Counted from the first letter of the stretch, positions 3,259-29,937 are shown. The stretch is DNA of 32,000 nt from Neisseria dentiae (GCF_014055005.1 NZ_CP059570.1:278008-310007), one strand, 5' to 3'. Numbers and translations are program-made. The notes: generated by a model not told the origin, from the sequence alone.

Positions 3259-3261
3259 TTT

Positions 3262-3821: not shown

Positions 3822-3882
3822 GCCGGTTCGGCTGATACGGATTAACGTTTAATTTTGATTTCCGATAAATCAGAGAGCAACC

Positions 3883-5878: not shown

Positions 5879-7200
5879 TTAGTCAAGACAAAGCAAAGAA
5901 AGCGCATGAAGCCGTATTTGGTGGCGGCGGCTTCGACGACGCGCCAAAGGCGGCTTCATGCGCCGGTATGGCGCCCCCCTTATCTAATAGGGGGGGAGCA
6001 GAAACGGAAGCGGTCGTAAGCGTGGAGCAGGAAGCGTTTGAAAAATACACCCACTTTTTGACCGATTCCAAAGGCCGTTTGCTGGAAATTCCGTTAAGAC
6101 GCGGTAAGGCAAATTCCGCCTTTATTGACCAAATCAGTTTTTCCATTCATGAAGATACCTTGTCGCTGCTCGCCGGTTATCCGCTCGTTGCAGATGATGA
6201 ATACATTATCCGTGCATCAATGGCACTTAACGATATTTTCGGCTTTGGCATTACAGAAAAAGCCAAACATTCGGGCGGCCGTTTCTATGATTCCTGCTGG
6301 TTGATGGGAACCGATAACGCCCAATACGGGCGTGTTCACTTCGGCGGCCAAAACAACACAATGTTGGTCGAAATTACCGCCACCGGCTGCAATGCCGCTT
6401 CAGACGGCTGGGAATCCCGTCTTTACCAATTCATCACCAAAGCCGTCCGCCCGAAAATTACCCGTATCGATATTGCCAAAGACTTTTTCAACGGCGAATA
6501 CACGCCCGAACAAGCCAAAGCTGACCGACTGGCGGGCAAATTCACCAATCACCACATGATGCCTGATGGCGAATCTGTCGGAACAGACTGGGAATCAAAC
6601 AATGGTAAGGGCAAAACCTATTATGTCGGCTCGCGCGAATCGTCCAAATACGTCCGTGTGTACGAAAAAGGCAAACAGTTGGGCGACAAAGAAAGCCCTT
6701 GGGTGCGTTTTGAAATCGAATTCAAGGCCAAAGATATTGTGATTCCTTTTGAGGTGCTGACCGTGCCGGGCGAATACTTCGGCGGTGCATATCCCATTTG
6801 CTCGCAGTTCCAAGAGAAAGCCAAACGGATTGAAGCCGTACAAAAGAATCTTGAATTGACTTTTGAACGCTGTATCGAAGTAGCCAGAAACCAAGTTGGC
6901 CGCGCCATCAATGCCGCCAAATCCATGTTCCCGAACAAACAGCCTGCCGAAATACTGGCCATGTTTGAACCCGAACACGACTTATTGCCTAAGCGTTTGA
7001 GTATGGAAGCCTATTCAGCCGAACATAATCACGCACCTGCTGTTCATGAAGATGAAGGCCGTCTGAAACTGGGCGAATCCGCCCAAATGCTGATTGAAAT
7101 GGTATTGGAACAGAAACAAAAAATGACCAAGCTGATTTCAGACAAGCACGAAGAAGATTATTTGGCTTGGGCGTATCACCAATATTCTAGCAAGTTTTAA
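5875..7200 (+). CDS. Rolling-circle replication initiation protein (Rep_trans / phage gene II-like)
   Basis: 441 aa with motifs typical of the Rep_trans family: ITRIDIAKDF, YYVGSRESSKYVRVYEKG and VRFEIEFK. It occupies the first large position in the inovirus module. Confidence 0.8.
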   Translation: MISQDKAKKAHEAVFGGGGFDDAPKAASCAGMAPPLSNRGGAETEAVVSVEQEAFEKYTHFLTDSKGRLLEIPLRRGKANSAFIDQISFSIHEDTLSLLAGYPLVADDEYIIRASMALNDIFGFGITEKAKHSGGRFYDSCWLMGTDNAQYGRVHFGGQNNTMLVEITATGCNAASDGWESRLYQFITKAVRPKITRIDIAKDFFNGEYTPEQAKADRLAGKFTNHHMMPDGESVGTDWESNNGKGKTYYVGSRESSKYVRVYEKGKQLGDKESPWVRFEIEFKAKDIVIPFEVLTVPGEYFGGAYPICSQFQEKAKRIEAVQKNLELTFERCIEVARNQVGRAINAAKSMFPNKQPAEILAMFEPEHDLLPKRLSMEAYSAEHNHAPAVHEDEGRLKLGESAQMLIEMVLEQKQKMTKLISDKHEEDYLAWAYHQYSSKF

Positions 7201-7254
7201 AAGGCAGAACGCTGCCGCCTGAAAGTGCAGCGTATTTATGAAAGGAAAACCATC

Positions 7255-7551
7255 ATGCAAATGCAGATTCAAGGCCAAATCATGGGCGTAAAACGTTTTA
7301 ACGGCCAAATCGACGGCAAAACATTCGACTACTGCCGCGTTATCGTCGCAACCCCGTTAGATGCCAGCCAAGGCAACGCCTTGGGCAGCTCGGCTACGGA
7401 ATACGATTTCGGCGGTTCCGTTAATTTTGAACAATTCAAAGGCGCATCATTCCCTTTTGAAGCCAATTTAACCGTTGAGCTGGTAACTAACGGCAAAAGC
7501 CAAAAACTGAAAATCATCGGTTTCCAGCCCAAAACACAAAGCAAAGGTTAA
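7255..7551 (+). CDS. Putative ssDNA-binding protein (gene V analogue)
   Basis: 98 aa counted from the ATG with an AAAGGA RBS; the track start at 7225 is a GTG upstream. The call rests on size and position directly after rep. Confidence 0.45.
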   Translation: MQMQIQGQIMGVKRFNGQIDGKTFDYCRVIVATPLDASQGNALGSSATEYDFGGSVNFEQFKGASFPFEANLTVELVTNGKSQKLKIIGFQPKTQSKG

Positions 7552-7554
7552 GCC

Positions 7555-7752
7555 ATGACGATAACCCATGTTTATGTAGTGCAGTCACGGGAAACAGGGG
7601 ATTTCCTATACCCGTCTGATACGGGTGATGTGGGTCATACGCCGTTTATAAACCAAGCCGGTTTTTTCTTCGATAGGAACGAAGCCATAGAAACCGCGCT
7701 GGAAGAGATAGGTGACAACTTTATCGTCTTTGGTTTCCTGACTGAAATGTAA
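7555..7752 (+). CDS. Small acidic phage protein of unknown function
   Basis: 65-aa ORF, tightly packed 3 nt after the previous stop. Confidence 0.45.
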   Translation: MTITHVYVVQSRETGDFLYPSDTGDVGHTPFINQAGFFFDRNEAIETALEEIGDNFIVFGFLTEM

Positions 7753-7837
7753 AAGATTCAGGCTCGGCGGGCGGTCTGATTACCTTCACAAAGCCCGTAC
7801 CTAAATTTTTCTTAACTCACTTTTGAAAGGAAATATC

Positions 7838-8056
7838 ATGAAAGCAATGAATATTGCCCGTAAATACGGCGCAAAAGCCGCCTTTTTTGTAGCCGCTCCG
7901 CTGGCTCTCGCTACTCAAGCCTATGCTGCTTTGCCTGAAGCGGCAAAAACAGGTATTGAAACTGCCAAATCAGACGGCCTTGAAGCTGGTTGGCTGGTAG
8001 TGGGCGTATTTGCGGCGCTGTTTGTTATCTCCATCGTAAAACGCTTGTTGCGATAA
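7838..8056 (+). CDS. Major coat protein (pVIII-like)
   Basis: 72 aa with signal peptide ...ALATQAYA|ALPE. The mature part is acidic and amphipathic, followed by a hydrophobic helix (GWLVVGVFAALFVISIV) and a basic tail (KRLLR). RBS GAAAGGA lies upstream. Confidence 0.8.
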   Translation: MKAMNIARKYGAKAAFFVAAPLALATQAYAALPEAAKTGIETAKSDGLEAGWLVVGVFAALFVISIVKRLLR

Positions 8057-8068
8057 TAGGTAAACAGA

Positions 8069-8344
8069 ATGTACTACCAAGTTGGAAATAAATGTCTTGA
8101 GCAAAGCCAGGCTGAAAACGTCTATTTCAGTTTGGTAGTACCTCAAATTAGTCAAGACGGCCAAATTATCAAGCCAGAATACAACGGTTCCGCATGGGTT
8201 TTAAACGGCCAAACTATTAAGGCAAATCTGCCGCAATGCAATCCCGTTGATAATCTGAAATCAGGTCTTGAAACAGGCTGGCTGCTTTTCGGTGTCATGG
8301 CTGCCGTGTATTTCGTTTCAATTACAAAAAGGCTGTTTCAATGA
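8069..8344 (+). CDS. Coat-protein paralog / minor virion protein with a pVIII-like C-terminal anchor
   Basis: 91 aa. The C-terminus GLETGWLLFGVMAAVYFVSITKRLFQ parallels the major coat's GLEAGWLVVGVFAALFVISIVKRLLR. Confidence 0.55.
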   Translation: MYYQVGNKCLEQSQAENVYFSLVVPQISQDGQIIKPEYNGSAWVLNGQTIKANLPQCNPVDNLKSGLETGWLLFGVMAAVYFVSITKRLFQ

Positions 8345-8415
8345 TGATGGATTATTACTTTTATCTTGGATTGGCCGTTCCGGTTGCGATTGGCTTTATT
8401 CTTTTTAAGGACTGA
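8341..8415 (+). CDS. Possible 24-aa hydrophobic minor coat protein (pVII/pIX analogue)
   Basis: Encodes MMMDYYFYLGLAVPVAIGFILFKD. The ATG overlaps the previous stop (CAATGA). It is below the size cutoff of the ORF track. Size, hydrophobicity and position resemble the small Ff cap proteins. Confidence 0.3.
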   Translation: MMMDYYFYLGLAVPVAIGFILFKD

Positions 8416-8488
8416 TACCGTCATTTATGAAAACGTGTTAAATTCGCACTTTCAAAACTGTAACGATGGTTAGAAAGTGGGGTTTGAG

Positions 8489-8812
8489 ATGTTTTATATT
8501 TCGGAAGATGAATTAAAGTTTAAGCAAGATACTGTTTTTGAATATCGTGATTTAAAACTTAATCAGATATGTGTTAGGGAACTTGTTTTATTGAATGAAC
8601 GTTATCCTATTGATGATTTTGTTTCTTTTGCAAGGCGATATTTCCAGTATTTCCTTAATAGAACTTATTTGAATGATATTGTTGTATTTTTTGAAGATAG
8701 TTCTATTTTGAAAGTTCATTTTTCCGATTCGGGCTTTGAATGTTCGGAATATTATGATAATGAAATTTCAACAGCTTTTTATTACGGGCGTTATTCTATT
8801 CGTTTGCTCTAA
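8489..8812 (+). CDS. AT-rich accessory ORF of unknown function (possible moron)
   Basis: 107 aa from the ATG (111 aa from the GTG at 8477) in a stretch of visibly low GC. An open frame this long in AT-rich DNA is unlikely by chance. There is no signal peptide. The 3' end overlaps the adsorption gene start. Confidence 0.45.
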   Translation: MFYISEDELKFKQDTVFEYRDLKLNQICVRELVLLNERYPIDDFVSFARRYFQYFLNRTYLNDIVVFFEDSSILKVHFSDSGFECSEYYDNEISTAFYYGRYSIRLL

Positions 8813-14926: not shown

Positions 14927-15076
14927 GGCGGATTATTTTACTATGCCTGTATTGCGTGATGCAGGTGGGTTTTGCCGGTTTTGCCGGCGGCCGAAAATAA
15001 ATCTGCATGGTTTGCAAATGGTTTGGGCCGTGTAAGATATGTAAGGAAATTACATTTTCATAGAAAGATTGAGATC

Positions 15077-16348
15077 ATGACATATTGCTCTTCTAAAACA
15101 TTGCGCTTGGCGGCCGTAGCCGCTGCTACGCTGCTGGCATTGTCTGCCTGCGGCAAAAGTGAAGAATCGGCCCAGCAGGGCAAAGGGGGCGCGGCAGGCC
15201 AGCAGGCGCCCGCGCCCGTAGTGGGCGTGGTTACCGTGCAGCCGCAGTCGGTAACCATCAGCACCGAACTGCCCGGCCGTTTGGAGTCGCGCCGCTCGGC
15301 CGATATCCTGCCGCAAGTGAGCGGCATTATCAAAAAGCGTTTGTTTCAAGAGGGCAGTTATGTGAAGGCCGGTCAGGCGCTGTATCAGTTGGATGATGCA
15401 ACCTATACCGCTTCTTTGGAAAGCGCCCGCGCCGAGCTGGCTTCCGCACAGGCAACGTTGGCTAAGGCCAATGCCGATTTGGCGCGCTACAAGCCTTTGG
15501 TGGCCGCCGATGCCATCAGCAAGCAGGATTACGATGCCGCCGTGCAGTCTAAGCGCTCCGGCGAAGCCGGTGTGAAAGCTGCCCAAGCAGCAATCAGATC
15601 GGCCCAAATCAATGTGGACCGCTCGCGCATCAGCGCACCGATTTCCGGTTATATCGGCCAATCTTATGTTTCGGAAGGTGCGTTGGTTAGTTCCGGCAGC
15701 ACCACCAAGCTTGCCGTTATCCAGCAGACCAACCCCATGTATGTGAACCTTACCCAATCCGCAACCGATGCCATGAAGCTGCGCCAAGATATCGCCGACG
15801 GCAAAATGAAGGCGGTAAACGGCGCGGTGGAAGTGGACATCAAACTTGAAAACGGCCAAACCTACGCCCACAAAGGCCGCCTTCTGTTTGCAGACCCAAC
15901 GGTGGATGAAACCACCGGCCAAGTAACCCTGCGCGCCGAAGTGCCCAATCCCGATAACATTCTGCTGCCCAATTTATATGTGCGTGTGAGCCTGCCGCAG
16001 GCCGATATGGATGATGTGTTCGTGGTGCCGCAGCAGGCGGTAACGCGCGGCAAGCAAGATACGGTGATGATTGTGAACGCCCAAGGCGGTATGGAACCGC
16101 GCGTGGTAACGGTGGCGCAGCAATACGGCAGTAATTGGATTATTTCAGACGGCCTCAAGGCGGGCGACAAAGTGATTGTGGACGGTACATCTATCGCCGG
16201 TATGATGCAGGCGAAAAAAGTAACGCCTAAAGAATGGACGCCGCCTTCGGAGCAGGCATCGCAAGCCGCCCCCGCCGCCCAAGGCGCATCTGCCGTTCAG
16301 ACGGCCTCTGAAGCCAAACCCGCCGCCGCTTCCGGCGAGAAAAAATAA
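15077..16348 (+). CDS. mtrC: RND efflux periplasmic adaptor lipoprotein MtrC
   Basis: 423 aa from the ATG at 15077; the track start at 14972 is TTG. It has a lipobox (LLALSAC). Long blocks match MtrC as I recall it (APAPVVGVVTV, KRLFQEGSYV, LAKA.ADLARYKPLV, NPMYVN.TQSA, GRLLFADPTV). Confidence 0.9.
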   Translation: MTYCSSKTLRLAAVAAATLLALSACGKSEESAQQGKGGAAGQQAPAPVVGVVTVQPQSVTISTELPGRLESRRSADILPQVSGIIKKRLFQEGSYVKAGQALYQLDDATYTASLESARAELASAQATLAKANADLARYKPLVAADAISKQDYDAAVQSKRSGEAGVKAAQAAIRSAQINVDRSRISAPISGYIGQSYVSEGALVSSGSTTKLAVIQQTNPMYVNLTQSATDAMKLRQDIADGKMKAVNGAVEVDIKLENGQTYAHKGRLLFADPTVDETTGQVTLRAEVPNPDNILLPNLYVRVSLPQADMDDVFVVPQQAVTRGKQDTVMIVNAQGGMEPRVVTVAQQYGSNWIISDGLKAGDKVIVDGTSIAGMMQAKKVTPKEWTPPSEQASQAAPAAQGASAVQTASEAKPAAASGEKK

Positions 16349-16359
16349 GGAAGCGACAC

Positions 16360-19300
16360 ATGGCTAAATTTTTTATCGACCGCCCGATTTTTGCCTGGGT
16401 AATCGCGATTTTCGTGATTATCGCAGGTGTTGTGGGCATCAGAAGTCTGCCGGTTTCCCAATATCCTTCCGTGGGCGCACCTACCATCACGCTGACGGCC
16501 ACCTATCCGGGTGCATCGGCACAGGTAATGGAAGACAGCGTGCTGGCCGTTATCGAGCGCAATATGAACGGTGTGGAAGGCTTGGACTATATGACCACCA
16601 ATGCAACGTCCAGCGGCGGCGGCACGGTCAGCCTGACCTTTACCCCCGAAACCGACGAGGATATGGCGCAGGTTGAAGTGCAGAACAAACTTTCCGAAGT
16701 AACGGCGCTGCTGCCCGCAACCGTGCAGCAAAACGGTGTAACCGTATCCAAATCGCGATCCAACTTCCTGATGGTGTTGATGATGTCGTCCGACACCATG
16801 GACACAGAAGAAATCGCCGACTATGTGGAGCGCAACATCAAGCCGGAAATCCAGCGTGTGGAAGGTGTAGGCGAAGCCCGCCTGTTCGGCTCGCAACGTG
16901 CCATGCGCGTGTGGGTTGATCCGAAAAAACTGCAAAACTACAACCTTTCTTTTGCCGACGTATCTTCTGCCATCAGTGCCCAAAACGCCCAGCTTTCCGT
17001 AGGCACGATGGGCGATCTGCCTGCCGTACAGGGGCAGACCATTGCCGCCACCATTGTGGCGCAAGGCCAGATGAGCAAGCCCGAAGAGTTCGGCAACATC
17101 GTTTTGCGTTCCAGCACCGACGGTGCCAACGTTTATCTGAAAGACGTGGCCAAAATCGCTTTGGGCAGCCAGGATTATGCAACCGGCACGCGCTTGAACG
17201 GCAAGCCTTCGGTGGGTATGGCGGTGATGCTGTCCAACAGCGGTAACGCCGTGGCGACGGCTACCGCCGTGCGTGAAAAAATGGATCAGTTGCAGCGTTA
17301 TTTCCCCAACGATATGAAATGGTCGGCGCCTTACGATACGTCTAAGTTCGTGAACATTTCGATTGAGAAAGTGGTGCACACGCTGATCGAAGCCATTGTG
17401 TTGGTGTTTATTGTGATGTTCCTGTTTTTGCAGAATATCCGCTATACGCTGATTCCCACCATCGTGGTGCCGATTTCGCTGTTGGGTGCGTTTGCCTCGA
17501 TTTGGTATTTGGGCATGTCGATTAACGTGCTGACCATGTTTGCGATGGTGCTGGTAATCGGTATCGTGGTGGACGATGCGATTGTGGTGGTGGAAAACGT
17601 CGAGCGGATTATGGCCGAAGAAGGGCTGCCTCCGGTTGAAGCCACTAAAAAGGCCATGAGCCAGATTTCCGGTGCGGTAGTCGGTATTACAGCCGTGTTG
17701 ATTTCGGTGTTTGTGCCGCTGGCGATGTTCAGCGGCGCCACCGGTAATATTTACCGCCAGTTTGCCGTAACCATGGCGATTGCGATTGCTTTCTCGGCAT
17801 TTTTCGCCCTCACGCTCACGCCCGCTTTGTGCGCTTCCATGCTCAAAGCCATTCCCAAAGGCCATCACGAAGAGAAAAAAGGCTTTTTCGGCTGGTTCAA
17901 CCGCAAGTTTTCAGACGGCACACACCGCTACGAAGGCTGGGTGGCCAAGCTGTTGCGCAAATCCGCCCGCATGATGGTGGTGTATGTGGCGCTGGCCGCC
18001 GTGGCCGGTTTGCTGTTTGTGCGCATTCCCACATCCTTCCTGCCGACTGAAGACCAAGGCAGTCTGATGATGATGGTGCAGCTGCCTTCAGGCGCCACCA
18101 AAGAGCGTACCGATGCCACTTTGGCCGTTGCCAACCAAGTGATTACCTCCATGCCCGAAGTGGAAAACTTTATCGGCGTGTCTGGTTTCAGCTTTGCCGG
18201 TTCCGGCCAGAATATGGGTTTTGGTTTCGTGACCCTGAAAGATTGGAACGAGCGCAAAGCCGCAGGCAGTGATGCTGCTTCGGTGGCCGGTAAGATTACC
18301 GGTGCGCTGATGGGCAGCGTGCGCGACGGTTTTGCGATCGTGATGAACCCGCCCGCCATTATGGAATTGGGCACCAGCTCCGGTTTTGAAATGTATCTGC
18401 AAGACCGCAACAACAGCGGCCACGAAGCGTTGTTAGCCAAACGTAACGAGCTGATCGGCAAAATGCGCCAAAACCCGATGTTTGATGCCAGCAATGTGCG
18501 TGCTTCGGGTTTGGAAGATGCGCCACAGTTGAAGATTGAAATCGACCGTCAGGCCGCCGCCGCGCAGGGCATTGATTTTTCCAGCATCAAAACCGTTTTG
18601 GGTACGGCGTTGGGTTCTTCTTATATAAACGACTTCCCCAATAACGGCCGCTTGCAGCGGGTGATTGTTCAGGCCGATGCCGCCGCGCGTATGCAGCCTG
18701 CCGATATTCTTGCATTGCCCGTGCCCAACAGTAACGGCGTAGCGGTGCCGCTTTCCACCGTTGCCACCGTATCTTGGCAAAACGGTATGGAGCAGAGCGT
18801 GCGCTTCAACGGCTATCCCGCCATGCAGATTTCAGGCGCGGCGGCTACAGGTTATTCTTCGGGCGAAGTGATGGCCGAAGTGCAGAAAATGGTAGACCAA
18901 ATGCCCGGCTACAGCTTGGAATGGGGCGGCCAGTCGCGCGAAGAAGCCAAGGGCAGCTCGCAAACTTATGTTTTGTATGGTTTTGCCATTTTGGCCGTAT
19001 TCCTCGTGCTGGCCGCATTGTATGAAAGCTGGTCGATTCCGCTGGCCGTGATTTTGGTGGTGCCGCTGGGCTTCTTGGGTGTGGTGTTGGGTGTAACCGG
19101 CCGCAACCTTACCGGTAATCTGTTCGGTATGCCTGCCCAATACCTCAACGATATCTACTTCCAAGTCGGCCTGATTACCGTAATCGGTTTGAGTGCGAAG
19201 AACGCCATTCTGATTATCGAGTTTGCCAAAGACTTGCAAGAGCAGGGCAAAACGGCCATTGCCGCAGCACTGGAAGCCGCACACCTGCGTTTCCGTCCGA

Positions 19301-19560
19301 TTATTATGACCTCGTTTGCCTTTATCTTGGGCGTGGTGCCGCTGTATATCGCTTCGGGTGCCAGCTCGGCCAGTCAACGCGCCATTGGTACGACTGTGTT
19401 GTGGGGGATGTTGGTCGGTACGGTTTTGGCCGTGTTCCTTGTGCCGATTTTCTATGTTGTGGTGCGTAAAATCTTTAAAGGAGGCCACGGTACACCTGAG
19501 CAAGAACAGGTTGCAGACAATGCCGCCTTAACCGATAATGCCCACCCTGGCAAGGATTAA
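16360..19560 (+). CDS. mtrD: RND multidrug efflux permease MtrD
   Basis: 1066 aa. It begins MAKFFIDRPIFAWVI and has the 12-TM HAE1 architecture. It is highly similar to gonococcal MtrD as I recall it. Confidence 0.95.
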   Translation: MAKFFIDRPIFAWVIAIFVIIAGVVGIRSLPVSQYPSVGAPTITLTATYPGASAQVMEDSVLAVIERNMNGVEGLDYMTTNATSSGGGTVSLTFTPETDEDMAQVEVQNKLSEVTALLPATVQQNGVTVSKSRSNFLMVLMMSSDTMDTEEIADYVERNIKPEIQRVEGVGEARLFGSQRAMRVWVDPKKLQNYNLSFADVSSAISAQNAQLSVGTMGDLPAVQGQTIAATIVAQGQMSKPEEFGNIVLRSSTDGANVYLKDVAKIALGSQDYATGTRLNGKPSVGMAVMLSNSGNAVATATAVREKMDQLQRYFPNDMKWSAPYDTSKFVNISIEKVVHTLIEAIVLVFIVMFLFLQNIRYTLIPTIVVPISLLGAFASIWYLGMSINVLTMFAMVLVIGIVVDDAIVVVENVERIMAEEGLPPVEATKKAMSQISGAVVGITAVLISVFVPLAMFSGATGNIYRQFAVTMAIAIAFSAFFALTLTPALCASMLKAIPKGHHEEKKGFFGWFNRKFSDGTHRYEGWVAKLLRKSARMMVVYVALAAVAGLLFVRIPTSFLPTEDQGSLMMMVQLPSGATKERTDATLAVANQVITSMPEVENFIGVSGFSFAGSGQNMGFGFVTLKDWNERKAAGSDAASVAGKITGALMGSVRDGFAIVMNPPAIMELGTSSGFEMYLQDRNNSGHEALLAKRNELIGKMRQNPMFDASNVRASGLEDAPQLKIEIDRQAAAAQGIDFSSIKTVLGTALGSSYINDFPNNGRLQRVIVQADAAARMQPADILALPVPNSNGVAVPLSTVATVSWQNGMEQSVRFNGYPAMQISGAAATGYSSGEVMAEVQKMVDQMPGYSLEWGGQSREEAKGSSQTYVLYGFAILAVFLVLAALYESWSIPLAVILVVPLGFLGVVLGVTGRNLTGNLFGMPAQYLNDIYFQVGLITVIGLSAKNAILIIEFAKDLQEQGKTAIAAALEAAHLRFRPIIMTSFAFILGVVPLYIASGASSASQRAIGTTVLWGMLVGTVLAVFLVPIFYVVVRKIFKGGHGTPEQEQVADNAALTDNAHPGKD

Positions 19561-19562
19561 GT

Positions 19563-21002
19563 ATGAAACACATGAACTTCAAGCCCCTTATTAGTGCCGT
19601 GGCCGTGAGTATTGCCCTGTCGGCCTGCGCCATGATTCCGAAATACGAGCAGCCGCAGGTAAGCGTGCCCGAGAATTTCAAATACGACACTTATCCAGGC
19701 ACCGGCATTCAGGCGGCCTCTTTGGGCTGGCAGGATTATTTCGCCGACCCGCGCCTGCACCGCCTGATTGAAATCGCGTTGGCGCGCAACACCGATTTGC
19801 GCAGCGCCGCGCTCAATGCCGAAGCCCTGCGCAAGCAGTATATGATTCAGCGTGCCGACCTGCTGCCCGGCATCAATGCCACCGGCAGCGGTTCGCGCGG
19901 CAGAACGGCGGCCGATTTGAGCAACACGGGCCGGTCGTATGTGTCGTCGGCTTACAGCGTCGGCTTGGGCGTAACTTCTTACGAAATCGACCTGTTCGGC
20001 AAAGTGCGCAGCAACACCGAAGCCGCCTTGCAAAGCTATTTCAACAGCGCCGCCACCCGCGATGCCACCCATCTTTCTCTGGTGGCTTCGGTGGCGAAAG
20101 CCTATTTCAACGAACTTTATGCCGCAGAAAGCATGAAGCTGGCGCAAAACGTGTTGAAAACCCGCGAGCAAACCTACAAACTCACCCAGCTGAAACACAA
20201 AGCGGGCGTGGTTTCCGCCGTTGATTTGCGCCAGCAGGAAGCCCTGATCGAATCGGCCAAAGCCGATTATGCTAATGCCGTGAAATCCAAAGAGCAGGCG
20301 GCAAACGCGTTGGCCGTGCTGATCAACCAGCCGCTTCCGGCCGATTTGCCGGCCGGATTGCCGTTGAACAAACAGTTCAAAATCAGCAAATTGCCCGCAG
20401 GCTTAAGCTCCGAAGTGATGCTTAACCGCCCCGACATCCGCGCAGCGGAGCATTCGCTCAAACAGGCCAACGCCAATATCGGTGCGGCGCGTGCGGCGTT
20501 TTTCCCCAGCATCAGCCTCACCAGCACCATCGGCACAGGTTCTACCGAGTTGAGCGGTTTGTTTAAGGGCGGCAACGGCACATGGTCGTTCGCACCCAGC
20601 ATCAATCTGCCGATTTTCAACTGGGGCAGCAACAAAGCCAACCTCGATGCTGCGAAAATCCGCCAGCAGATTCAAGTGGTTAATTATGAGGCCGCCGTAC
20701 AGTCGGCTTTCCAAGACGTAGCCAACGCCTTGGTTGCCCGCGAGCAGCTGGATAAAAGCAATGCCGCTTTAACCAAGCAGAGCAGGGCTTATGCCGATTC
20801 GCTGCGCCTGATTAACCTGCGCTACCGCCACGGCGTATCCAGCGCGCTCGATTTGCTCGATGCCGAGCGCAGCAGCTACAGCGCCGATACCGCGCTGCTG
20901 GCCAACCAGCTCACCCGTTTGGAGAACCTTGCCGACCTGTATAAAGCCCTCGGCGGCGGTTTGAAGCGTTACACCCAAAACGACGATGCCGCCCGGCAAT
21001 AA
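19563..21002 (+). CDS. mtrE: Outer-membrane channel lipoprotein MtrE (NodT/OMF family)
   Basis: 479 aa with a lipobox (IALSAC). It has the two-repeat OMF architecture and lies 2 nt after mtrD. Confidence 0.9.
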   Translation: MKHMNFKPLISAVAVSIALSACAMIPKYEQPQVSVPENFKYDTYPGTGIQAASLGWQDYFADPRLHRLIEIALARNTDLRSAALNAEALRKQYMIQRADLLPGINATGSGSRGRTAADLSNTGRSYVSSAYSVGLGVTSYEIDLFGKVRSNTEAALQSYFNSAATRDATHLSLVASVAKAYFNELYAAESMKLAQNVLKTREQTYKLTQLKHKAGVVSAVDLRQQEALIESAKADYANAVKSKEQAANALAVLINQPLPADLPAGLPLNKQFKISKLPAGLSSEVMLNRPDIRAAEHSLKQANANIGAARAAFFPSISLTSTIGTGSTELSGLFKGGNGTWSFAPSINLPIFNWGSNKANLDAAKIRQQIQVVNYEAAVQSAFQDVANALVAREQLDKSNAALTKQSRAYADSLRLINLRYRHGVSSALDLLDAERSSYSADTALLANQLTRLENLADLYKALGGGLKRYTQNDDAARQ

Positions 21003-22867: not shown

Positions 22868-23776
22868 ATGCCCGCCCCATCGCGTTTGCGCGTCCACCTG
22901 CAACTTATCGGCATGGCGTTGTTTTGGGGTGCGAGCTGGTCGTTTGCGAAAACCATGGTGCAGCATATGCCGCCGATTGCCGGCGCCGGCCTGCGCTTTG
23001 TGTTCAGCACCGCCATTCTCTTGATGTGGCTGTATTACCGGCAAGGCTTTGCACCGCTGCGCGCGCTTGGCCGCCCGCAGTGGGCGGGGCTGATTATTGC
23101 CGGCTTTTTCGGCATTTATCTCTATGCCGTCTTTTTCATGGTTGCCCTGCAATATGTGCCCGCCGGCAAAGGCGCGACCACGGTTGCCCTAAACCCGGTG
23201 CTGCCTTTGTTGCTCGGCGCCTGGCTGTTTCGCGAACCGCTTAACCTGCGTATTTTCTGCGGCATGGCGCTGGCGGTTGCCGGTGCATTAACCGCCATTT
23301 CTCGTGGCGATTGGCTGGCGCTGTTTTCCGGCGGGCTGGGCATGGGCGAATATATGCTTTTCGGTGCCGTGCTGAGTTGGGGCGCCTATACCCTTATCGG
23401 CCGCTTTCTGCTCAAGGGTATCCCGCCGCTCATCAGCACGCTTGTTGCGGCGGGCAGCGGCAGCCTGATGCTGCTGGTAACTTCGTTTTTGGTTGAAGGC
23501 GTGCACGGCTGGCAGCAGCTTGCCCATACGCAGCCGGCGGCATGGATGAGTTTGGCCGGTATCGTTGTGCTGGCTACTGTGCTGGGCTATTTGTGGTATT
23601 TCGACGGCATCAAAGCGTTGGGCGCGGGTAAAGCCGCAATCTATATGGCGCTGGTACCGGTTTTCGGCATCACCGTCTCTACTTTGTGGTTGAACGAACC
23701 TTTGCATGTTTCCCTGCTCGGCGGTGCGGTGATGGTGGTGGGCGGTATGTTGGTTATGAATCTTCGGAAAACATAA
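22868..23776 (+). CDS. DMT-superfamily (EamA-like) transporter
   Basis: 302 aa from the ATG at 22868 (RBS AAGGAG). It has about 10 hydrophobic segments in two EamA-like halves. Confidence 0.8.
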   Translation: MPAPSRLRVHLQLIGMALFWGASWSFAKTMVQHMPPIAGAGLRFVFSTAILLMWLYYRQGFAPLRALGRPQWAGLIIAGFFGIYLYAVFFMVALQYVPAGKGATTVALNPVLPLLLGAWLFREPLNLRIFCGMALAVAGALTAISRGDWLALFSGGLGMGEYMLFGAVLSWGAYTLIGRFLLKGIPPLISTLVAAGSGSLMLLVTSFLVEGVHGWQQLAHTQPAAWMSLAGIVVLATVLGYLWYFDGIKALGAGKAAIYMALVPVFGITVSTLWLNEPLHVSLLGGAVMVVGGMLVMNLRKT

Positions 23777-23837
23777 GGCTGCTTTTGCATAACGCTGATG
23801 TAGTAGATGGCGTTATGGATTTTGCAAAGGGTTGGTT

Positions 23838-23895
23838 GTTATAAAAACACCGCGGCCGTCTGAAATGTTTCAGACGGCCGCGGTGTTTTTATAAC
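23838..23895. terminator. 58-bp perfect palindrome containing a DUS pair (bidirectional terminator or insulator)
   Basis: GTTATAAAAACACCGCGGCCGTCTGAAA (23838-23865) is the exact reverse complement of 23868-23895. Confidence 0.7.
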
Positions 23896-24011
23896 AAAAT
23901 ATTAAATTTTTTCAATCGCTTGAAGATTTATCATAAAAAATCTGTAGCAACGTGTAAGAAGCCGCCGCCTGTGCCGTCTACTCGGGCATGAACGATTTTT
24001 CAGGAACCATC

Positions 24012-24467
24012 ATGAACCGCACAGCTTGTTTGAGCCGCTTTTCAGACACATGGGGCAAAGATGCCGCGATTTTGGGTTTGCGCTTGTTTGCCGCTTATGA
24101 ATTCTGGGAAGCGGGCATTGAAAAATGGAACGGCCAAAACTGGTTTGCCGATATTCAAAGCGCGTTTCCGTTTCCGTTCAATTTGTTTTCCGCTGGATTC
24201 AACTGGACGGCGGCAACGGGCATCGAGTTGGTGGCGCCGCTGTTGCTGCTGTTCGGCCTGTTCGGGCGCGCCGGCGCGCTGATGCTGATGGCACTAACGG
24301 CGGTGGCATGGGCGGCGGTACACAGCGGCAACGGCTATAACGTGTGCGACAACGGCTACAAAATGGCACTGATTTATCTGGTGGCGCTGCTGCCGTTGGT
24401 TTTGCAGGGCATGGGCCGTTTTTCGCTGGACTATCTGCTTTTCGGCCGGCGCAATAAGGCCGTCTGA
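24012..24467 (+). CDS. DoxX-family membrane protein, first gene of the sigmaE / MNIO operon
   Basis: 151 aa from the ATG at 24012 (RBS AGGA); an alternative ATG lies at 23988. It has four hydrophobic segments and a DoxX-like N-terminus (LGLRLFAAYEFWEAGIEKW). Confidence 0.75.
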   Translation: MNRTACLSRFSDTWGKDAAILGLRLFAAYEFWEAGIEKWNGQNWFADIQSAFPFPFNLFSAGFNWTAATGIELVAPLLLLFGLFGRAGALMLMALTAVAWAAVHSGNGYNVCDNGYKMALIYLVALLPLVLQGMGRFSLDYLLFGRRNKAV

Positions 24468-24551
24468 AACGGTTAAGCGCCGTTTTATCCGGCAGAGATT
24501 TTATTCTTTATTGGTTTTATCCCCTCTATATGTTTGAAAGGAAAAAGAAAT

Positions 24552-24746
24552 ATGAAAACCACTTCTACTTTGATGGCATTGGCCGGCGCGCTGGTTTTGG
24601 CGGGCTGCCAGGTCGAGCCTGCGCAATCTTCTTCGCCGGAAGTGTCGGTGCAGCAGAAAGCGGGCGAGGGCAAGTGCGGCGCGGCTTCCCAAGCGGGCAA
24701 GGCTGCCGAAGGCAAGTGCGGCGAGGGTAAATGCGGCAGCAAATAA
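24552..24746 (+). CDS. hvfA: EGKCG-repeat precursor peptide 1 (HvfA/oxazolin-like), lipoprotein-type signal
   Basis: 64 aa: MKTTSTLMALAGALVLAGC|QVEP... with three EGKCG motifs, ending EGKCGEGKCGSK. RBS AAGGA lies upstream. The lipobox is LAGC. Confidence 0.75.
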   Translation: MKTTSTLMALAGALVLAGCQVEPAQSSSPEVSVQQKAGEGKCGAASQAGKAAEGKCGEGKCGSK

Positions 24747-24852
24747 TGTGATACCGGTTTGAAAAGGCTGCCAGGCATTTTCAGACGGCCTCATGTGTTC
24801 AACTTCATTTTCAATACTTGTTAATTTTCAATACTTTTTAAAAGGAAACATC

Positions 24853-25083
24853 ATGAAAAAATCTTCTTCTCTGATTGCATTGGCCGGTGCGCTGGCATTG
24901 TTGGGCGGACAGGCAATGGCGGAAACCAAACAGCCCGCTGCAGCCAAAACCGTGAAAACCGCCGTTAAAAAAGCGCAGGAAGGCGCTTGCGGCGAGGGCA
25001 AATGCGGCGCGTCGGCCGGCAAGAAATCTGCCGGTAAAGCGGGCGAAGGCAAGTGCGGCGAAGGCAAGTGCGGCAGCAAATAA
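24853..25083 (+). CDS. hvfA: EGKCG-repeat precursor peptide 2 (HvfA/oxazolin-like), Sec/SPase I-type signal
   Basis: 76 aa: MKKSSSLIALAGALALLGGQAMA|ETK... with one EGACG and three EGKCG motifs and the same C-terminus EGKCGEGKCGSK. RBS AAAGGA lies upstream. Confidence 0.75.
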   Translation: MKKSSSLIALAGALALLGGQAMAETKQPAAAKTVKTAVKKAQEGACGEGKCGASAGKKSAGKAGEGKCGEGKCGSK

Positions 25084-25090
25084 ATAATTG

Positions 25091-25130
25091 AGGCCGTCTG
25101 AAAAGGTTTGCCGTTTTCAGACGGCCTTTT
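25091..25130 (+). terminator. DUS-pair hairpin between the precursor genes and the modification genes (partial terminator or attenuator)
   Basis: AGGCCGTCTGAAAA (25091-25104) pairs with TTTTCAGACGGCCT (25114-25127), followed by TTT. Confidence 0.6.
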
Positions 25131-25169
25131 CGCCCCGTATGGCTGGAACAGTATGAAAAAGGAGATGGA

Positions 25170-26021
25170 ATGAATACCTTGCACGGCGCCGGTTTGGGCT
25201 ACAAACGCAGCATGGCTGCCGATTTCTTGCAGCTTGACCGCAACAACAGCCCGATCCGTTTCATTGAAATCGCCCCCGAAAACTGGTTGAGAATGGGCGG
25301 CGCGGCACGCAAGCAGTTTGATGAAGTGGCCGAACGCTTTCCCGTCGCCTGCCACGGCCTGTCGCTGTCGCTGGGCGGGCAAGACCCGTTGCAGCTTGAT
25401 TTTCTCAAACAAATCAAAGCATTTTTGCGGCAATACCGCATCGGCTTTTTTTCGGAGCATTTGAGCTATTGCAGCCACCACGGCCATATTTACGACCTGC
25501 TGCCGCTGCCGTTTACCGAAGAGTCGGTGCGCCACACCGCCGCGCGCATCCGGGCGGTGCAGGATATTCTCGAAATGCGCATCGCCGTGGAAAACACTTC
25601 ATATTACGCCCACAACCCGATTGCCGAGATGGACGAAGCCGAGTTTCTCAACGCCGTGGTGCGCGAGGCCGACTGCGACATCCATCTGGACATCAACAAT
25701 ATCTACGTTAACGCCGTCAACCACGGCATTGTCGCCCCGCGCGACTACATCGACCGCACCGATTTGGCGCGCGTCAGCTATATGCACATGGCCGGCCACG
25801 ACGAAAAAACCGAAAACCTGCTCATCGACACCCACGGCCAGCCCGTGTGCGACGACGTGTGGGATTTGTTTGCCTATGCCTGCCGCCGCCTGCCGCACAG
25901 CGTGCCCACCCTGCTGGAGCGCGACAGCAACTTCCCGCCGTTTGCCGAGCTGGAAGCCGAAGTCGCCCGCATCGCCGCCATCCAACAACAAGCAGAAAAG
26001 GAACGCCATGCAGCCGCATAA
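25170..26021 (+). CDS. hvfB: DUF692-family multinuclear non-heme iron oxidase (MNIO; MbnB/HvfB/BufB-like)
   Basis: 283 aa with UPF0276/DUF692 hallmarks: GLGYKR near the N-terminus, [25 protein letters not shown] and HMAGHD...LIDTHG. RBS AGGAG lies upstream. Confidence 0.85.
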
Positions 26022-26730
26022 CCCCAGCCCCTCCGCCCGCGCGCAGGCCGAGCTGGCCGACCATGTGCGCAACCCCGCGCTGCCCGCGCCCGCCGGCATC
26101 GCCCCCGAGCGTCTGGCCGTGTACACCCGCCTGGTGCGCAACAATTTGAAAAGCTTTCTCGACCTCTGCTTCAGCGACAGCAGCCTTATGCTCGACCCCG
26201 CGCAATGGCAGGGCTGGCAGAACCGCTTTTTGATCGAAGCGCGCCCCGAATCGCCGTTTTTCAACGATATTCCCGCGCAGTTTCTCGCCTACCTCAACCG
26301 CCTGCCCGAACACGACAGGCCGTCTGAAAACATTCTGGCGATGATGGATTTCGAAACCGCGCTGCTGCACGCAGAAACCGCCCGACAACCCGATTCAGAC
26401 GGCCGCTGGAGCGAACACAGCGTGTTATCATGGGCGCCCGCCGCCCGCCTGCAACAATATCCCTGCGATTTCGTCAGCAGCGGTTTGGCGCAGATAAACG
26501 CCGGCGCGTGCCACGTTTTAAGCTGGCGCAACCGCCGCAACGAAGTGTATTACCGCATTGTGGAAGATACCGATTTGTTTTTACTGCAACATTTTCAAAG
26601 CCAAAACGACACCTTCGCCCGCCTGCTCGAAAGCCTGCAAAGCCTGCTGCCGGGGCAGGACATCGAAGGCCGCCTGAAAACGGCCGTCGGCGGTTGGGTG
26701 GAAGCAGGCGTTTTACTCACGGCGGAATAA
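26008..26730 (+). CDS. hvfC: DUF2063-family partner protein (MbnC/HvfC/BufC-like, RRE-containing)
   Basis: 240 aa from the ATG at 26008 (RBS AAGGA). It overlaps hvfB by 14 nt. The N-terminal [22 protein letters not shown] pattern is typical of DUF2063. The 369-aa track ORF is an upstream out-of-context extension. Confidence 0.8.
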
Positions 26731-26733
26731 ATC

Positions 26734-27327
26734 ATGGAAGCATTCACGCAAAAACTGGCCGCCATTCGCCAAGATGTGCTGCGCTTTGCCAAAATCCAAC
26801 TGCGCGACGAATATCTGGCCGAAGACATCGTGCAAGACACGCTGGCCGCCGCCATCGCCAAACACAGCCAGTTCCGCGGCGACGCCGGGCTGAAAACCTG
26901 GGTGTTGAGCATACTCAAAAACAAAATCGCCGATTACTTCCGCAGCCACAAATACACCGTCAGCCTTGAGAGCCTGCAAGAAGAAAACGACGCCATCGAA
27001 CGCCACTACGACCACTGTTTCGACGAAAACGGCCACTGGCAGCTTGCCGACAGCCCGCAAAACTGGCAGCCCGCCCCCGAAGAAGCCGTTGCCCGGCAGG
27101 ATTTTTTCCGCGCGCTCGAAAACTGCATGCAGGGCCTGCCGCAGGATACCGCCCGCATTTTCTATTTGCGCGAAGTGATGGGTTGGGACGTGGAAGAAAT
27201 CTGCCGCGAATTTGCCATCAGCAAAGATAACTGCTACGTTATTTTGCACCGCGCCCGCAACGGCCTGCGCCGGTGCCTGCAACACCGCTGGTTCGACTTG
27301 GCCGAAGAAGAAGGCGCAGGGAAATAA
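26734..27327 (+). CDS. rpoE: ECF-type sigma-70 family sigma factor (neisserial sigmaE/Ecf)
   Basis: 197 aa. Region 2 is EDIVQDTLAAAIAKHSQFRGDAGLKTWVLSILKNKIADYFR. Region 4 is EICREFAISKDNCYVILHRARNGLRRCL. The start lies 3 nt after the hvfC stop. Confidence 0.85.
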   Translation: MEAFTQKLAAIRQDVLRFAKIQLRDEYLAEDIVQDTLAAAIAKHSQFRGDAGLKTWVLSILKNKIADYFRSHKYTVSLESLQEENDAIERHYDHCFDENGHWQLADSPQNWQPAPEEAVARQDFFRALENCMQGLPQDTARIFYLREVMGWDVEEICREFAISKDNCYVILHRARNGLRRCLQHRWFDLAEEEGAGK

Positions 27328-27336
27328 GGAGGAAAT

Positions 27337-27513
27337 ATGTTGAAATGCAAAGAAGCCTGCGTATTGCTTTCGCAAAGCCAGGACCGCACACTCACCCCGC
27401 GCGAACGCCTTTCGGTGTGGGTGCATCTGGCAATTTGCCCGCATTGCCGACGATACCGCAAACAGTTGAAGTTTATCAGAAAAAATATTAAAAATTGGCA
27501 GGAGCGGGAATAG
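27337..27513 (+). CDS. mseR: Small cytoplasmic zinc-binding (ZAS, HxxxCxxC) anti-sigma factor (MseR-like)
   Basis: 58 aa, below the track cutoff: MLKCKEACVLLSQSQDRTLTPRERLSVWVHLAICPHCRRYRKQLKFIRKNIKNWQERE. A strong RBS (AGGAGG) is present. The motif is H30-x3-C34-x2-C37. There is no TM segment. Confidence 0.75.
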   Translation: MLKCKEACVLLSQSQDRTLTPRERLSVWVHLAICPHCRRYRKQLKFIRKNIKNWQERE

Positions 27514-27562
27514 GGCGGGGCGGCCGGCTGGAAATTTTCGTGTTTGCCGGCAGGCCATCCGG

Positions 27563-27600
27563 GCAGCGGTTTTTAAACGATAAAACCGCTGCTTTATTTT
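27563..27600 (+). terminator. Rho-independent terminator ending the sigmaE operon
   Basis: GCAGCGGTTTT (27563-27573) pairs with AAAACCGCTGC (27582-27592), followed by TTTATTTTT. Confidence 0.75.
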
Positions 27601-27660
27601 TGCTATCGTGAATCAATTTAAGAAAAGTATGCGCGCCATAATCGGATTAAGTCCAATCAG

Positions 27661-27861: not shown

Positions 27862-29937
27862 ATGAAGAAAACGATTTTGGCCGTATTGATCGGCAACGCA
27901 TTTATCCTGCCTGCTTGGGCAGAAACGGAAGCACAAACACAAAGCGTTACATTGGATAATGTAGTGGTGAAAGGCGACCGGCAAGGCAGTAAAATCAAAA
28001 CCAATATCGTTACCCTGCAGGAAAAAGACGAAAGCACGGCAACCGATTTGCGTGGTCTGTTAAAAGAAGAGCCTGCGATCGATTTCAGCGGCGGCAACGG
28101 CACTTCTCAGTTTCTCACCATTCGCGGCATGGGTCAGAACTCGGTTGATCTTAAGATAGACAACGCCTATTCCGACAGCCAGATTCTGTATCACCAAGGC
28201 CGCTTCATTATCGACCCGGCGTTGGTGAAAATCGTATCGGTGCAAAAAGGCGCGGGTTCGGCCAGCGCGGGCATCGGTGCCACCAACGGCGCGATTGTCG
28301 CCAAAACCGTTGATGCCGCAGATTTGCTCAAGGGCTTGGATAAAGATTGGGGCGTGCGCGTCAATGCCGGTTATTCGAGCAATGAAGGCCACAATTACGG
28401 CACCAGCGTATTCGGCCGCGCAGGCAATTTTGACGGCCTGCTCTCTTATAGCCGGACAGATGAAGACGATTACAAGGCGGGCAAAGGTTACGCCAACCAA
28501 TATGGCGGCCAAACCGTTTTGAAAAGCGGTTTGGACAAGCGCAGCTATTTGGCCAAAATCGGTGCGAATTTCGACAACCACCGCATTGCCTTGAGCCATA
28601 TGCAGGACCAACATCGCGGCGAGCGTTTTGTGCGCGAAGAATTCGGCTGGGAAACCCTCCCGCGCGGCAACCGGATTGCCGATAATGCCCCGGTTTACCG
28701 TGAAACCACCCTTTCCAACACCAATTTGGAGTGGACGGCACAAGACTTGGGTTTCATCGAAAAACTGGAAGCAAACGCCTATCTGATGAAAAACAAGCGT
28801 TATTCAGTTGACGACACCAGCAACGGTTATGCCGGCAATGTGCCCGGCCCGACCACCACCGTAATCGACACCAAAGGTGCCAATTTGGGTTTGGACAGCC
28901 GCTTGGGCGAAAAAACGCTGCTCAAATACGGCGTGAACTACCGCCATCAGGAAATTAAGCCGCACGCTTTTTTAAATTCGCAATACACCAACAGAGATGA
29001 TGCGCAACTGCAAAGCCTGGTGAGAAGCTACAATCTGGTTAACCCGACCAAGACCGACGCGGGCGTGTATGCGGAAGCCATTCACGATATCGGCGATTTC
29101 ACCTTAACCGGCGGCCTGCGCTACGACCACTTCGACATCAAAACCCACGACGGCAAAAAAGTGTCTGCCGGCCGTCTGAACCCGAGCTTCGGCGTGATTT
29201 GGCAGCCGCTCGACACGCTCAGCTTCAGCGCCGTCCACAACTACGCCAGCCGCAGCCCGCGCCTGTATGATGCCTTGATGATCCACGGCCGCCGCGGCAT
29301 CGTTTCCATTGCCGACGGTACCAAAGCCGAGCGCGCGCGCAACACGGAAATCGGCTTCAACTACAACAACGGCACTTTTGCGGCAAACGGCAGTTACTTC
29401 TGGCAGAAAATCAGCGATGCTATCGCCAACCCGCAAGACCGCCACGGTTCGGCTTTTAGAGAAGCCGCCAATGCGGGCTACATCAAAAACCGCGGCTACG
29501 AATTGGGCGCGTCTTACCGTACCGGCGGCCTGATTGCCAAAGTGGGCGTTGCACACAGCAAACCGCGCCTTTACGACACACACCCCGAGAAGTTGTTAAG
29601 CGACAACCCCGAATTTGCCGTTCGGGTAGGCCGCACGTGGACCGCATCGCTGGCCTACCGCTTCAACAAGCCCGATTTGGAAATCGGCTGGCAGAACCGT
29701 ACCGTGCAGAAAGCCTCGGGTTCCGTTTTGGTGCGCGACGGTTCGCAGGTTGAACGCAAGAGCTATAACGTTAACGATATCTATGCCAACTGGAAGCCGT
29801 TGGGCAAAGATACTTTGAATGTGAATTTCGCCGTTAACAATGTGTTTAACAAGTTCTATTATCCGCACAGCCAGAAGGGTACAACCCTGCCCGGCATAGG
29901 CCGCGATTTCCGCTTGGCAGTGAACTACAGATTCTAA
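27862..29937 (+). CDS. TonB-dependent outer-membrane receptor (haem/hemophore/metallophore-receptor-like subfamily)
   Basis: 691 aa with signal peptide ...ILPAWA|ETE and a TonB-box-like VTLDNVVVKG. Plug motifs are TIRGMGQNSVDLKIDN...HQGRF.IDPALVK.VSVQKGAGSA. The C-terminus ends ...AVNYRF with a terminal aromatic residue. There is no N-terminal signalling extension. Confidence 0.85.
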   Translation: MKKTILAVLIGNAFILPAWAETEAQTQSVTLDNVVVKGDRQGSKIKTNIVTLQEKDESTATDLRGLLKEEPAIDFSGGNGTSQFLTIRGMGQNSVDLKIDNAYSDSQILYHQGRFIIDPALVKIVSVQKGAGSASAGIGATNGAIVAKTVDAADLLKGLDKDWGVRVNAGYSSNEGHNYGTSVFGRAGNFDGLLSYSRTDEDDYKAGKGYANQYGGQTVLKSGLDKRSYLAKIGANFDNHRIALSHMQDQHRGERFVREEFGWETLPRGNRIADNAPVYRETTLSNTNLEWTAQDLGFIEKLEANAYLMKNKRYSVDDTSNGYAGNVPGPTTTVIDTKGANLGLDSRLGEKTLLKYGVNYRHQEIKPHAFLNSQYTNRDDAQLQSLVRSYNLVNPTKTDAGVYAEAIHDIGDFTLTGGLRYDHFDIKTHDGKKVSAGRLNPSFGVIWQPLDTLSFSAVHNYASRSPRLYDALMIHGRRGIVSIADGTKAERARNTEIGFNYNNGTFAANGSYFWQKISDAIANPQDRHGSAFREAANAGYIKNRGYELGASYRTGGLIAKVGVAHSKPRLYDTHPEKLLSDNPEFAVRVGRTWTASLAYRFNKPDLEIGWQNRTVQKASGSVLVRDGSQVERKSYNVNDIYANWKPLGKDTLNVNFAVNNVFNKFYYPHSQKGTTLPGIGRDFRLAVNYRF

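Follow-up and report, generated by a model that had tools for sequence, protein, structure and literature searches.

The 32,000-nucleotide stretch of the Neisseria dentiae genome analysed here (NZ_CP059570.1:278008-310007, the window) contains an operon at 23954-27604 on the plus strand, which consists of a sigmaE-type promoter, seven genes and a terminator. We consider it very probable that this locus is the 'ned' cluster of N. dentiae, an operon under sigmaE control for the biosynthesis of copper-binding RiPPs (peptides that are made by the ribosome and modified after translation) of the EGKCG type (the oxazolin/gonophorin family, or 'captophorins'). The gene families, the RiPP chemistry and the control of the orthologous operons by sigmaE and a zinc-binding anti-sigma (ZAS) factor are already published. 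Added here are a second precursor, a hairpin after the precursor genes that is conserved in position, a promoter that crosses family borders and a repeat number that varies between strains. The analysis also explicitly joins two literatures, that on the chemistry of the MNIO enzymes and that on neisserial sigmaE regulation; in the searched full-text literature, 'MNIO' and 'anti-sigma' occurred together only in papers of the bufferin group, in which the anti-sigma factor is NrsF. The trigger of the operon and the location of its product matter for host-pathogen copper and oxidant biology, because EGKCG peptides are associated with virulence and stress in Haemophilus influenzae and the operon is induced by neutrophils in gonococci. 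The features of the locus, in window positions, are as follows.

23836-23897, no strand assigned: perfect palindrome of 62 nt (30+2+30) made of two inverted DNA uptake sequences; -51.3 kcal/mol, z = -12
23954-23982, plus strand: sigmaE-type promoter, -35 element GTAAGAAGC, spacer N12, -10 element CGTCTACT
24012-24467, plus strand: hvfX, DoxX-family membrane protein, 151 aa, exactly WP_085365105.1
24552-24746, plus strand: precursor A1 (NedA), 64 aa, exactly WP_085365104.1
24853-25083, plus strand: precursor A2, 76 aa, exactly WP_085365103.1
25091-25127, plus strand: hairpin between A2 and the MNIO gene, inverted DNA uptake sequences followed by UUUU; -30.3 kcal/mol, z = -5.6
25170-26021, plus strand: MNIO (DUF692; HvfB family), NedB, 283 aa, exactly WP_085365102.1
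26008-26730, plus strand: DUF2063 partner with RiPP recognition element (RRE; HvfC family), NedC, 240 aa, WP_085365101.1
26734-27327, plus strand: extracytoplasmic function (ECF) sigma factor of the sigmaE/Ecf/RpoE2 type, 197 aa
27337-27513, plus strand: cytoplasmic ZAS anti-sigma factor of the MseR/HrsE type, 58 aa
27561-27604, plus strand: intrinsic terminator of the operon, 13-bp stem (27561-27594) followed by TATTTTTGCT (T-run)

By exact-sequence look-up, each of the seven proteins is an N. dentiae protein in RefSeq; WP_085365100 to WP_085365105 cover six of them, and the anti-sigma factor was recovered through GenBank accessions. N. dentiae strain 1292RC1 has the same MNIO sequence (100% identity). 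The window comes from the type strain of the species. NedABC were described from N. dentiae CCUG 53898 (PMC13056109; preprint PMC12636315). The translations of A1 and of the MNIO gene are identical to the NedA and NedB sequences printed in the supplement of PMC12636315, and with the partner being identical in sequence to NedC, the locus is the one described in PMC13056109. Co-expression of NedA with NedBC removed 4 Da per cysteine at all three EGKCG motifs, 12 Da in total (PMC13056109; PMC12636315 supplement), and NedA was triacylated at Cys19 in E. coli (PMC13056109, PNAS 2026). Since A1, the MNIO and the partner are exactly NedA, NedB and NedC, the co-expression and mass spectrometry experiment that an earlier note on this DNA had proposed has already been done here for precursor 1, and its claim that the DUF692/DUF2063 pair modifies cysteines is borne out by the published loss of 4 Da per EGKCG cysteine. 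The same note stated that the small open reading frames (ORFs) of the neisserial sigmaE operon had been treated as hypothetical; this no longer holds. In the searchable text of PMC13056109 and of the PMC12636315 supplement we found no mention of DoxX or a second precursor, nor of the sigma and anti-sigma factors, the promoter or the hairpin inside the operon.

The two precursors contain all seven EG[K/A]CG motifs found in a six-frame translation of the window. Both exceed the cut-off of the NCBIfam HvfA-family domain KCGExKCG_twice (A1, 37.3 bits; A2, 36.1 bits; cut-off 19.5). On inspection, A1 has three EGKCG motifs and the lipobox LAGC, a signal for signal peptidase II that marks a lipoprotein, and A2 has four core cysteines, in one EGACG and three EGKCG motifs, behind an ordinary Sec signal with the cleavage site AMA|E. 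The expected EGKCG precursors with signal peptides are thus present, but the idea of a free secreted peptide fails for A1 because of its lipobox. N. musculi, N. montereyensis and two further Neisseria share this pair of a lipoprotein and a soluble precursor, and the soluble type stands alone in N. elongata, N. iguanae, Pelistega and Glaesserella. Between the two N. dentiae strains the repeats differ in number: A1 has 64 aa and three core cysteines here versus 88 aa and six in 1292RC1, and A2 has 76 aa and four versus 97 aa and six (24552-25083 versus 3248-3914 in locus L001). This suggests that copper-binding capacity varies through the gain and loss of repeats between strains. Because the related enzyme FonBC accepts Ala in place of Lys in the motif, A2 can plausibly be modified at its EGACG cysteine as well. 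Just 5' of the A2 ribosome-binding site lies a 17-nt tandem duplication, ATTTTCAATACTTGTTA, in 2.1 copies (24807-24841), which was considered as a regulatory site. The two N. dentiae strains both have this duplication, and N. musculi has a single copy.

The profile searches that had been suggested for 25170-26730 place it in DUF692/MNIO and DUF2063, and the DoxX and zf-HC2 profiles likewise match hvfX and the anti-sigma factor; all seven proteins pass a curated NCBIfam or Pfam cut-off. The MNIO matches Pfam PF05114 with 338.7 bits (cut-off 25) and NCBIfam HvfB, NF003818, with 382.9 bits (cut-off 360), and its closest PDB entry is 3BWW (364 bits). When it was aligned to 7tcr_A, all nine ligands of the three iron sites reported for MbnB (H54, H90, E133, D163, N166, H192, D208, H210 and E239; PMC9060507) were found to be kept, as H62, H97, E141, D174, N177, H206, D220, H222 and E250. 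Because it falls below the equivalog cut-offs of the MbnB (TIGR04159, 48.4 bits versus 325), BufB (NF050167, 274.9 bits versus 310), ApyH and ChrH models, we assign it to the HvfB branch and not to the methanobactin or bufferin enzymes. The adjoining DUF2063/RRE partner gene (26008-26730) gives the MNIO the arrangement of PME type 1. This partner matches PF09836 (DUF2063), PF22106 (NGO1945_C), NCBIfam HvfC with 161.5 bits (cut-off 142) and PDB 3DEE (NGO1945) with 115 bits. The product of hvfX matches Pfam DoxX with 66 bits and NCBIfam HvfX with 132 bits (cut-off 80); in relatives, DoxX/HvfX is dispensable for the modification.

A DNA-binding role for the DUF2063 protein, which would make the cluster a regulatory cascade instead of a peptide modification system, was first proposed from the crystal structure of NGO1945, in which a similarity to sigma domains was noted, and Pfam still labels PF09836 a 'putative DNA-binding domain'. 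However, NgoBC and NgoABC form complexes in native mass spectrometry, current classification places the family among the RRE-containing partners of MNIOs, and the overlap of 14 nt between the two genes is typical of subunits of a complex. Moreover, NedBC modifies NedA, and the published reconstitutions effectively refute the DNA-binding role, which we regard as extremely improbable.

As for the product, the EGKCG family was first described as carrying oxazolone/thioamide groups (oxazolin, PMC11252979), and it was this chemistry that had been expected for the locus. It has been superseded, as three later reports assign 5-thiooxazoles to these peptides. Alkylation-assisted nuclear magnetic resonance (NMR) identified 5-thiooxazoles in fontiphorin, oxazolin and the N. 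gonorrhoeae gonophorin (PMC12668002), selective labelling identified them in bufferins, and the original oxazolin authors themselves reassigned their product to a 5-thiooxazole. This reassignment changes neither the absorbance near 305 nm nor the loss of 4 Da for each cysteine. Both gonophorin and oxazolin bind Cu (PMC12668002; for oxazolin also PMC11252979).

Plausible ribosome-binding sites precede all seven ORFs (23988-27513, plus strand). The seven linked genes described before are all there, with the overlap of 14 nt between the MNIO and DUF2063 genes, the gap of 3 nt before the sigma gene and an AGGAGG at 27327-32, 4 nt 5' of the anti-sigma ATG and in the region of the 9-nt gap between the sigma and anti-sigma genes. 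The tight packing does not extend to the first four genes, however, which are separated by 84, 106 and 86 nt, each gap with a hairpin. We rejected an in-frame ATG at 23988, which falls on the transcription start predicted for sigmaE, as the start of hvfX because it reads ATA in strain 1292RC1 and the RefSeq protein starts exactly at 24012. Some database entries carry a 159-aa form of hvfX despite the RefSeq start at 24012. Rfam and transfer RNA scans of the whole window returned no matches.

The neisserial sigmaE consensus is GTMAGBWTT-N12-13-CGTCTAAH, and transcription starts at an A six bases downstream (PMC2893595). The promoter at 23954-23982 has both cores, GTAAG and CGTCTA, unchanged and departs from the consensus at three positions in the tail of the -35 element and at one in that of the -10 element, and the predicted start is the A at about 23988. 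This is the single match to the strict pattern in the window, against 0.02 expected by chance, and no further sigmaE promoter was found there with that pattern. One relaxed sigmaE-like match, GTCAG...CGTCAA, lies on the minus strand at 3083-3056. The motif of the operon promoter is found about 55-90 nt before hvfX in eight further Neisseria loci, in Pelistega and in Glaesserella; in Acinetobacter it precedes the precursor gene as GTAATAAAT-N12-CGTCTAAC, and one Bacteroidota genome also has it. In all, it is conserved in 11 loci apart from Acinetobacter and the Bacteroidota genome. Acinetobacter has hvfX divergent from the precursor gene (L029 and L039-L048, about 3400-3630), and the intergenic region holds two back-to-back sigmaE-like promoters on opposite strands, GTAAGAAAC...CGACTAAT and GTAATAAAT...CGTCTAAC.

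The last two genes encode the switch. The ECF sigma factor has the domains Sigma70_r2 and r4_2 and scores 214 bits with TIGR02943 (cut-off 162). The anti-sigma factor scores 29.7 bits with zf-HC2 and 83.8 bits with NCBIfam antisigmaE, NF052368 (cut-off 50), and has the residues C4 and H30-x3-C34-x2-C37; a sequence search of the PDB with it gave no match even at E = 1. The N. meningitidis operon NMB2140-2145, which does have the layout of this locus, as the earlier note had proposed for the neisserial sigmaE operon, is polycistronic, sigmaE-dependent and autoregulated, and NMB2145 (MseR) is a ZAS anti-sigma factor that represses it and cannot do without Cys4, Cys34 and Cys37 (PMC2893595). The positions of C4, C34 and C37 in the window protein are the same, as is that of H30. 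In H. influenzae, hvfXABC is induced by HOCl in an RpoE2-dependent manner, and RpoE2 is held by HrsE, a ZAS protein of 67 aa (PMC7907618). Because of these published results, control by a ZAS-gated ECF sigma factor is established in the orthologues. The proposal that a ZAS anti-sigma factor gates a RiPP therefore holds for N. meningitidis and H. influenzae; it joins two published results and is not new. The gonococcal ecf operon, for its part, rises on exposure to neutrophils (PMC11257400).

Inducers of this kind could mean that the operon is mainly a defence against oxidants (HOCl) and that copper binding is incidental, with the thiooxazole thiolates and DoxX acting as sacrificial or redox-cycling scavengers in the envelope alongside the co-regulated MsrAB. 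In N. meningitidis, N. gonorrhoeae and H. influenzae alike, msrAB is under the same sigma factor, the anti-sigma factor is of the thiol-redox-sensing type, and 5-thiooxazoles are readily alkylated thiols (PMC12668002). The reported inducers are HOCl and H2O2 in H. influenzae and neutrophils in the gonococcus; copper is not among them. However, both oxazolin and gonophorin are copper binders, the sister bufferins guard Caulobacter against copper without needing DoxX there, and an H. influenzae rpoE2 mutant has wild-type oxidant resistance in vitro (PMC7907618). We consider it unlikely that oxidant defence is the main function of the operon.

The hairpin between A2 and the MNIO gene (25091-25127) is likely a partial terminator, or attenuator. 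Its stem of about 15-17 bp is GC-rich, and all 11 related loci examined have a strong hairpin behind their last precursor gene, which keeps its position and not its sequence. It could also be taken to end a transcription unit of hvfX, A1 and A2, so that nedB, nedC and the sigma and anti-sigma genes would be transcribed from a promoter of their own. The stability of the stem (-30 kcal/mol), the UUUU behind it, its conserved position in all loci examined and the full T-run that follows the corresponding hairpin in Pelistega would fit two units, as would the finding that uninduced N. meningitidis gave the sigma/anti-sigma product alone in reverse transcription PCR (RT-PCR; PMC2893595). Yet the same study obtained products spanning NMB2140-NMB2143 and NMB2142-NMB2144 on sigmaE induction, the U-tract at the N. 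dentiae hairpin is short, and neither a sigma-70-like nor a sigmaE-like promoter was found on the plus strand between 25083 and 26734. Two separate units are quite improbable in our judgement. Because the hairpin is conserved and the meningococcal RT-PCR indicates read-through, we suggest that an attenuator keeps the precursor and DoxX transcripts above those of the enzymes and regulators; it would thereby set the precursor-to-enzyme ratio.

Several points weigh against our interpretation of the locus. A1 and A2 score 41.9 and 39.3 bits with the HvfA equivalog model NF050188, below its cut-off of 95, and are therefore members of the HvfA family and not HvfA orthologues or equivalogs. Precursor 2 and its EGACG site are putative substrates, and the regulation proposed for N. 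dentiae is modelled on that of the orthologues. A hairpin of -30 kcal/mol could be a full stop instead of an attenuator. A gonococcal ecf mutant survives neutrophils normally (PMC11257400), and H2O2, diamide, singlet oxygen and SDS-EDTA failed to induce the N. meningitidis operon.

On balance, we propose the following scheme. At rest, the zinc-binding anti-sigma factor of 58 aa would keep the ECF sigma factor inactive, as has been shown for the orthologues in N. meningitidis and H. influenzae. A signal of the envelope or oxidative kind would then free the sigma factor, by analogy with HOCl or H2O2 in H. influenzae and contact with neutrophils in gonococci. The freed sigma factor would fire the promoter at 23954-23982 and give an hvfX-A1-A2 transcript, and some transcripts would pass the hairpin at 25091-25127 into nedB, nedC and the sigma and anti-sigma genes, as the anatomy of the operon and the RT-PCR in N. 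meningitidis suggest. The result would be positive autoregulation with a built-in brake and precursor in excess of enzyme. In the cytoplasm, the tri-iron MNIO NedB and the RRE partner NedC would convert each EGKCG cysteine to a 5-thiooxazole in a four-electron oxidation (-4 Da); for NedA the mass change has been shown, and for gonophorin, oxazolin and fontiphorin the ring structure. After Sec export, NedA, triacylated at Cys19 as shown in E. coli, would become a lipoprotein of the membrane or of outer-membrane vesicles, and precursor 2, cut by signal peptidase I, would probably be soluble in the periplasm. The thiooxazole thiolates would bind and buffer copper in the envelope under oxidative and copper stress from the host, a role suggested by the binding shown for relatives.

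The boundaries of the operon are only partly as described before. The strong terminator downstream was confirmed, with its 13-bp stem at 27561-27594 and T-run. The palindrome upstream exists too, but it has 62 nt and not 58, and it comes after the stop codon of the EamA gene; it reads as a (bidirectional) terminator of that gene and as a boundary that is not part of the operon. The EamA gene (22898-23776) lies between a flavin reductase gene of the Old Yellow Enzyme (OYE) type and the operon, and no counterpart was detected at this position in 1292RC1 (L001, 1064-2707). Because it is absent there in this second N. dentiae strain, the left flank of the operon is variable between strains. We rejected this EamA/drug-metabolite transporter (DMT) gene as a counterpart of the RpoE2-regulated dmt of H. 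influenzae, since no sigmaE motif lies upstream of it, the 62-nt terminator stands between it and the operon, and neither the other N. dentiae strain nor any other locus has it at this position. A TonB-dependent receptor gene at 27862-29937 was considered as an MbnT-like uptake partner and rejected: it is of the siderophore type by NCBIfam, lies beyond the terminator and adjoins the operon solely in N. dentiae and N. musculi.

Two DNA uptake sequences inside nedC (26318-26328 and 26394-26404, 65 nt apart) form a perfect inverted pair, which may be due to chance because the 10-mer core occurs 35 times in the window; 24 of the 35 are of the AG dialect, AGGCCGTCTGAA. Farther away, a filamentous prophage-like block at 5875-13903, which we take to resemble the meningococcal Nf/MDA phages, comprises a Rep_trans initiator (5875-7200), a TspB-family gene (8736-10391), a Zot-like assembly ATPase (10690-11844) and an IS110-family transposase (12875-13903). 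At 14198-21002, a TetR-family repressor on the minus strand stands beside an efflux pump of the resistance-nodulation-division (RND) type in an MtrR/MtrCDE-like arrangement, with the membrane-fusion protein at 14972-16348, the AcrB-type pump at 16360-19560 and the outer-membrane factor at 19563-21002.

Beyond N. dentiae, 30 of 53 loci with EGKCG-like precursors have a homologous sigma and anti-sigma pair within 4 kb of the cluster, in a sample that is biased towards relatives of the window MNIO. The GTAAG/T...CGTCTAA promoter is common to Neisseriaceae, Alcaligenaceae, Pasteurellaceae, Moraxellaceae and the Bacteroidota genome; the Methylophilaceae loci have no match to it and seem to carry another motif. 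In Methylophilaceae and related metagenome-assembled genomes (L015, L017, L019, L020, L022, L031, L034 and L074), the sigma/anti-sigma pair is upstream of the precursor, MNIO and partner genes, and in several of these loci a presumed promoter, GAATCTAG-N12-CGTATAA, overlaps the end of the anti-sigma gene. Taken together, it is possible, though we hold this only tentatively, that a TIGR02943 sigma factor with a cytoplasmic ZAS anti-sigma factor of about 58 aa was the ancestral dedicated switch of EGKCG clusters, that its zinc-thiolate site is a direct sensor of HOCl or Cu(I), and that the output in the N. dentiae clade is split on purpose between a lipopeptide anchored in the outer membrane or in vesicles and a peptide that is soluble in the periplasm. 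An ancestral switch of this kind would span Neisseriaceae, Alcaligenaceae, Pasteurellaceae, Moraxellaceae, Methylophilaceae and one Bacteroidota genome, and thus two phyla.

Among known systems, the closest are the operons NMB2140-2145 of N. meningitidis and NGO1943-1948 of N. gonorrhoeae (ngoABC, gonophorin), which share the gene order DoxX, precursor, MNIO, DUF2063, ECF sigma and ZAS anti-sigma, the promoter motif and the C4/H30/C34/C37 pattern of the anti-sigma factor with the window. They have six genes and one periplasmic precursor, whereas N. dentiae has seven and an extra precursor of the lipoprotein type. Its HvfC has diverged from NGO1945 (115 bits), and its DNA-uptake-sequence dialect is AG, in contrast to AT in the operons of the pathogenic Neisseria. 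The H. influenzae system hvfXABC (oxazolin) has the same four biosynthetic families, EGKCG repeats, and an ECF sigma and short ZAS anti-sigma factor of the same type. However, its RpoE2/HrsE pair is encoded elsewhere, beside msrAB, and not inside the operon as in N. dentiae, and HvfA has six repeat cysteines, with the window precursors below its equivalog cut-off.

The bufferins of Caulobacter (BufABCD, SigF/NrsF) also combine an MNIO, a DUF2063 protein and DoxX with precursors that carry Sec signals, 5-thiooxazoles, copper buffering and ECF control. Their precursors are DUF2282 or Buf2 proteins, though, and not EGKCG repeats, and the DUF2282 profile had no match among the window operon proteins; their anti-sigma factor, NrsF, is a membrane protein and not a cytoplasmic ZAS protein. 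Methanobactin (MbnABC) shares the MNIO fold and its iron ligands, the four-electron oxidation of cysteines and a copper-binding product. It differs in having MbnC as the partner, a leader-peptide precursor without Sec export and oxazolone/thioamide groups, where the window has a DUF2063 partner and Sec signals.

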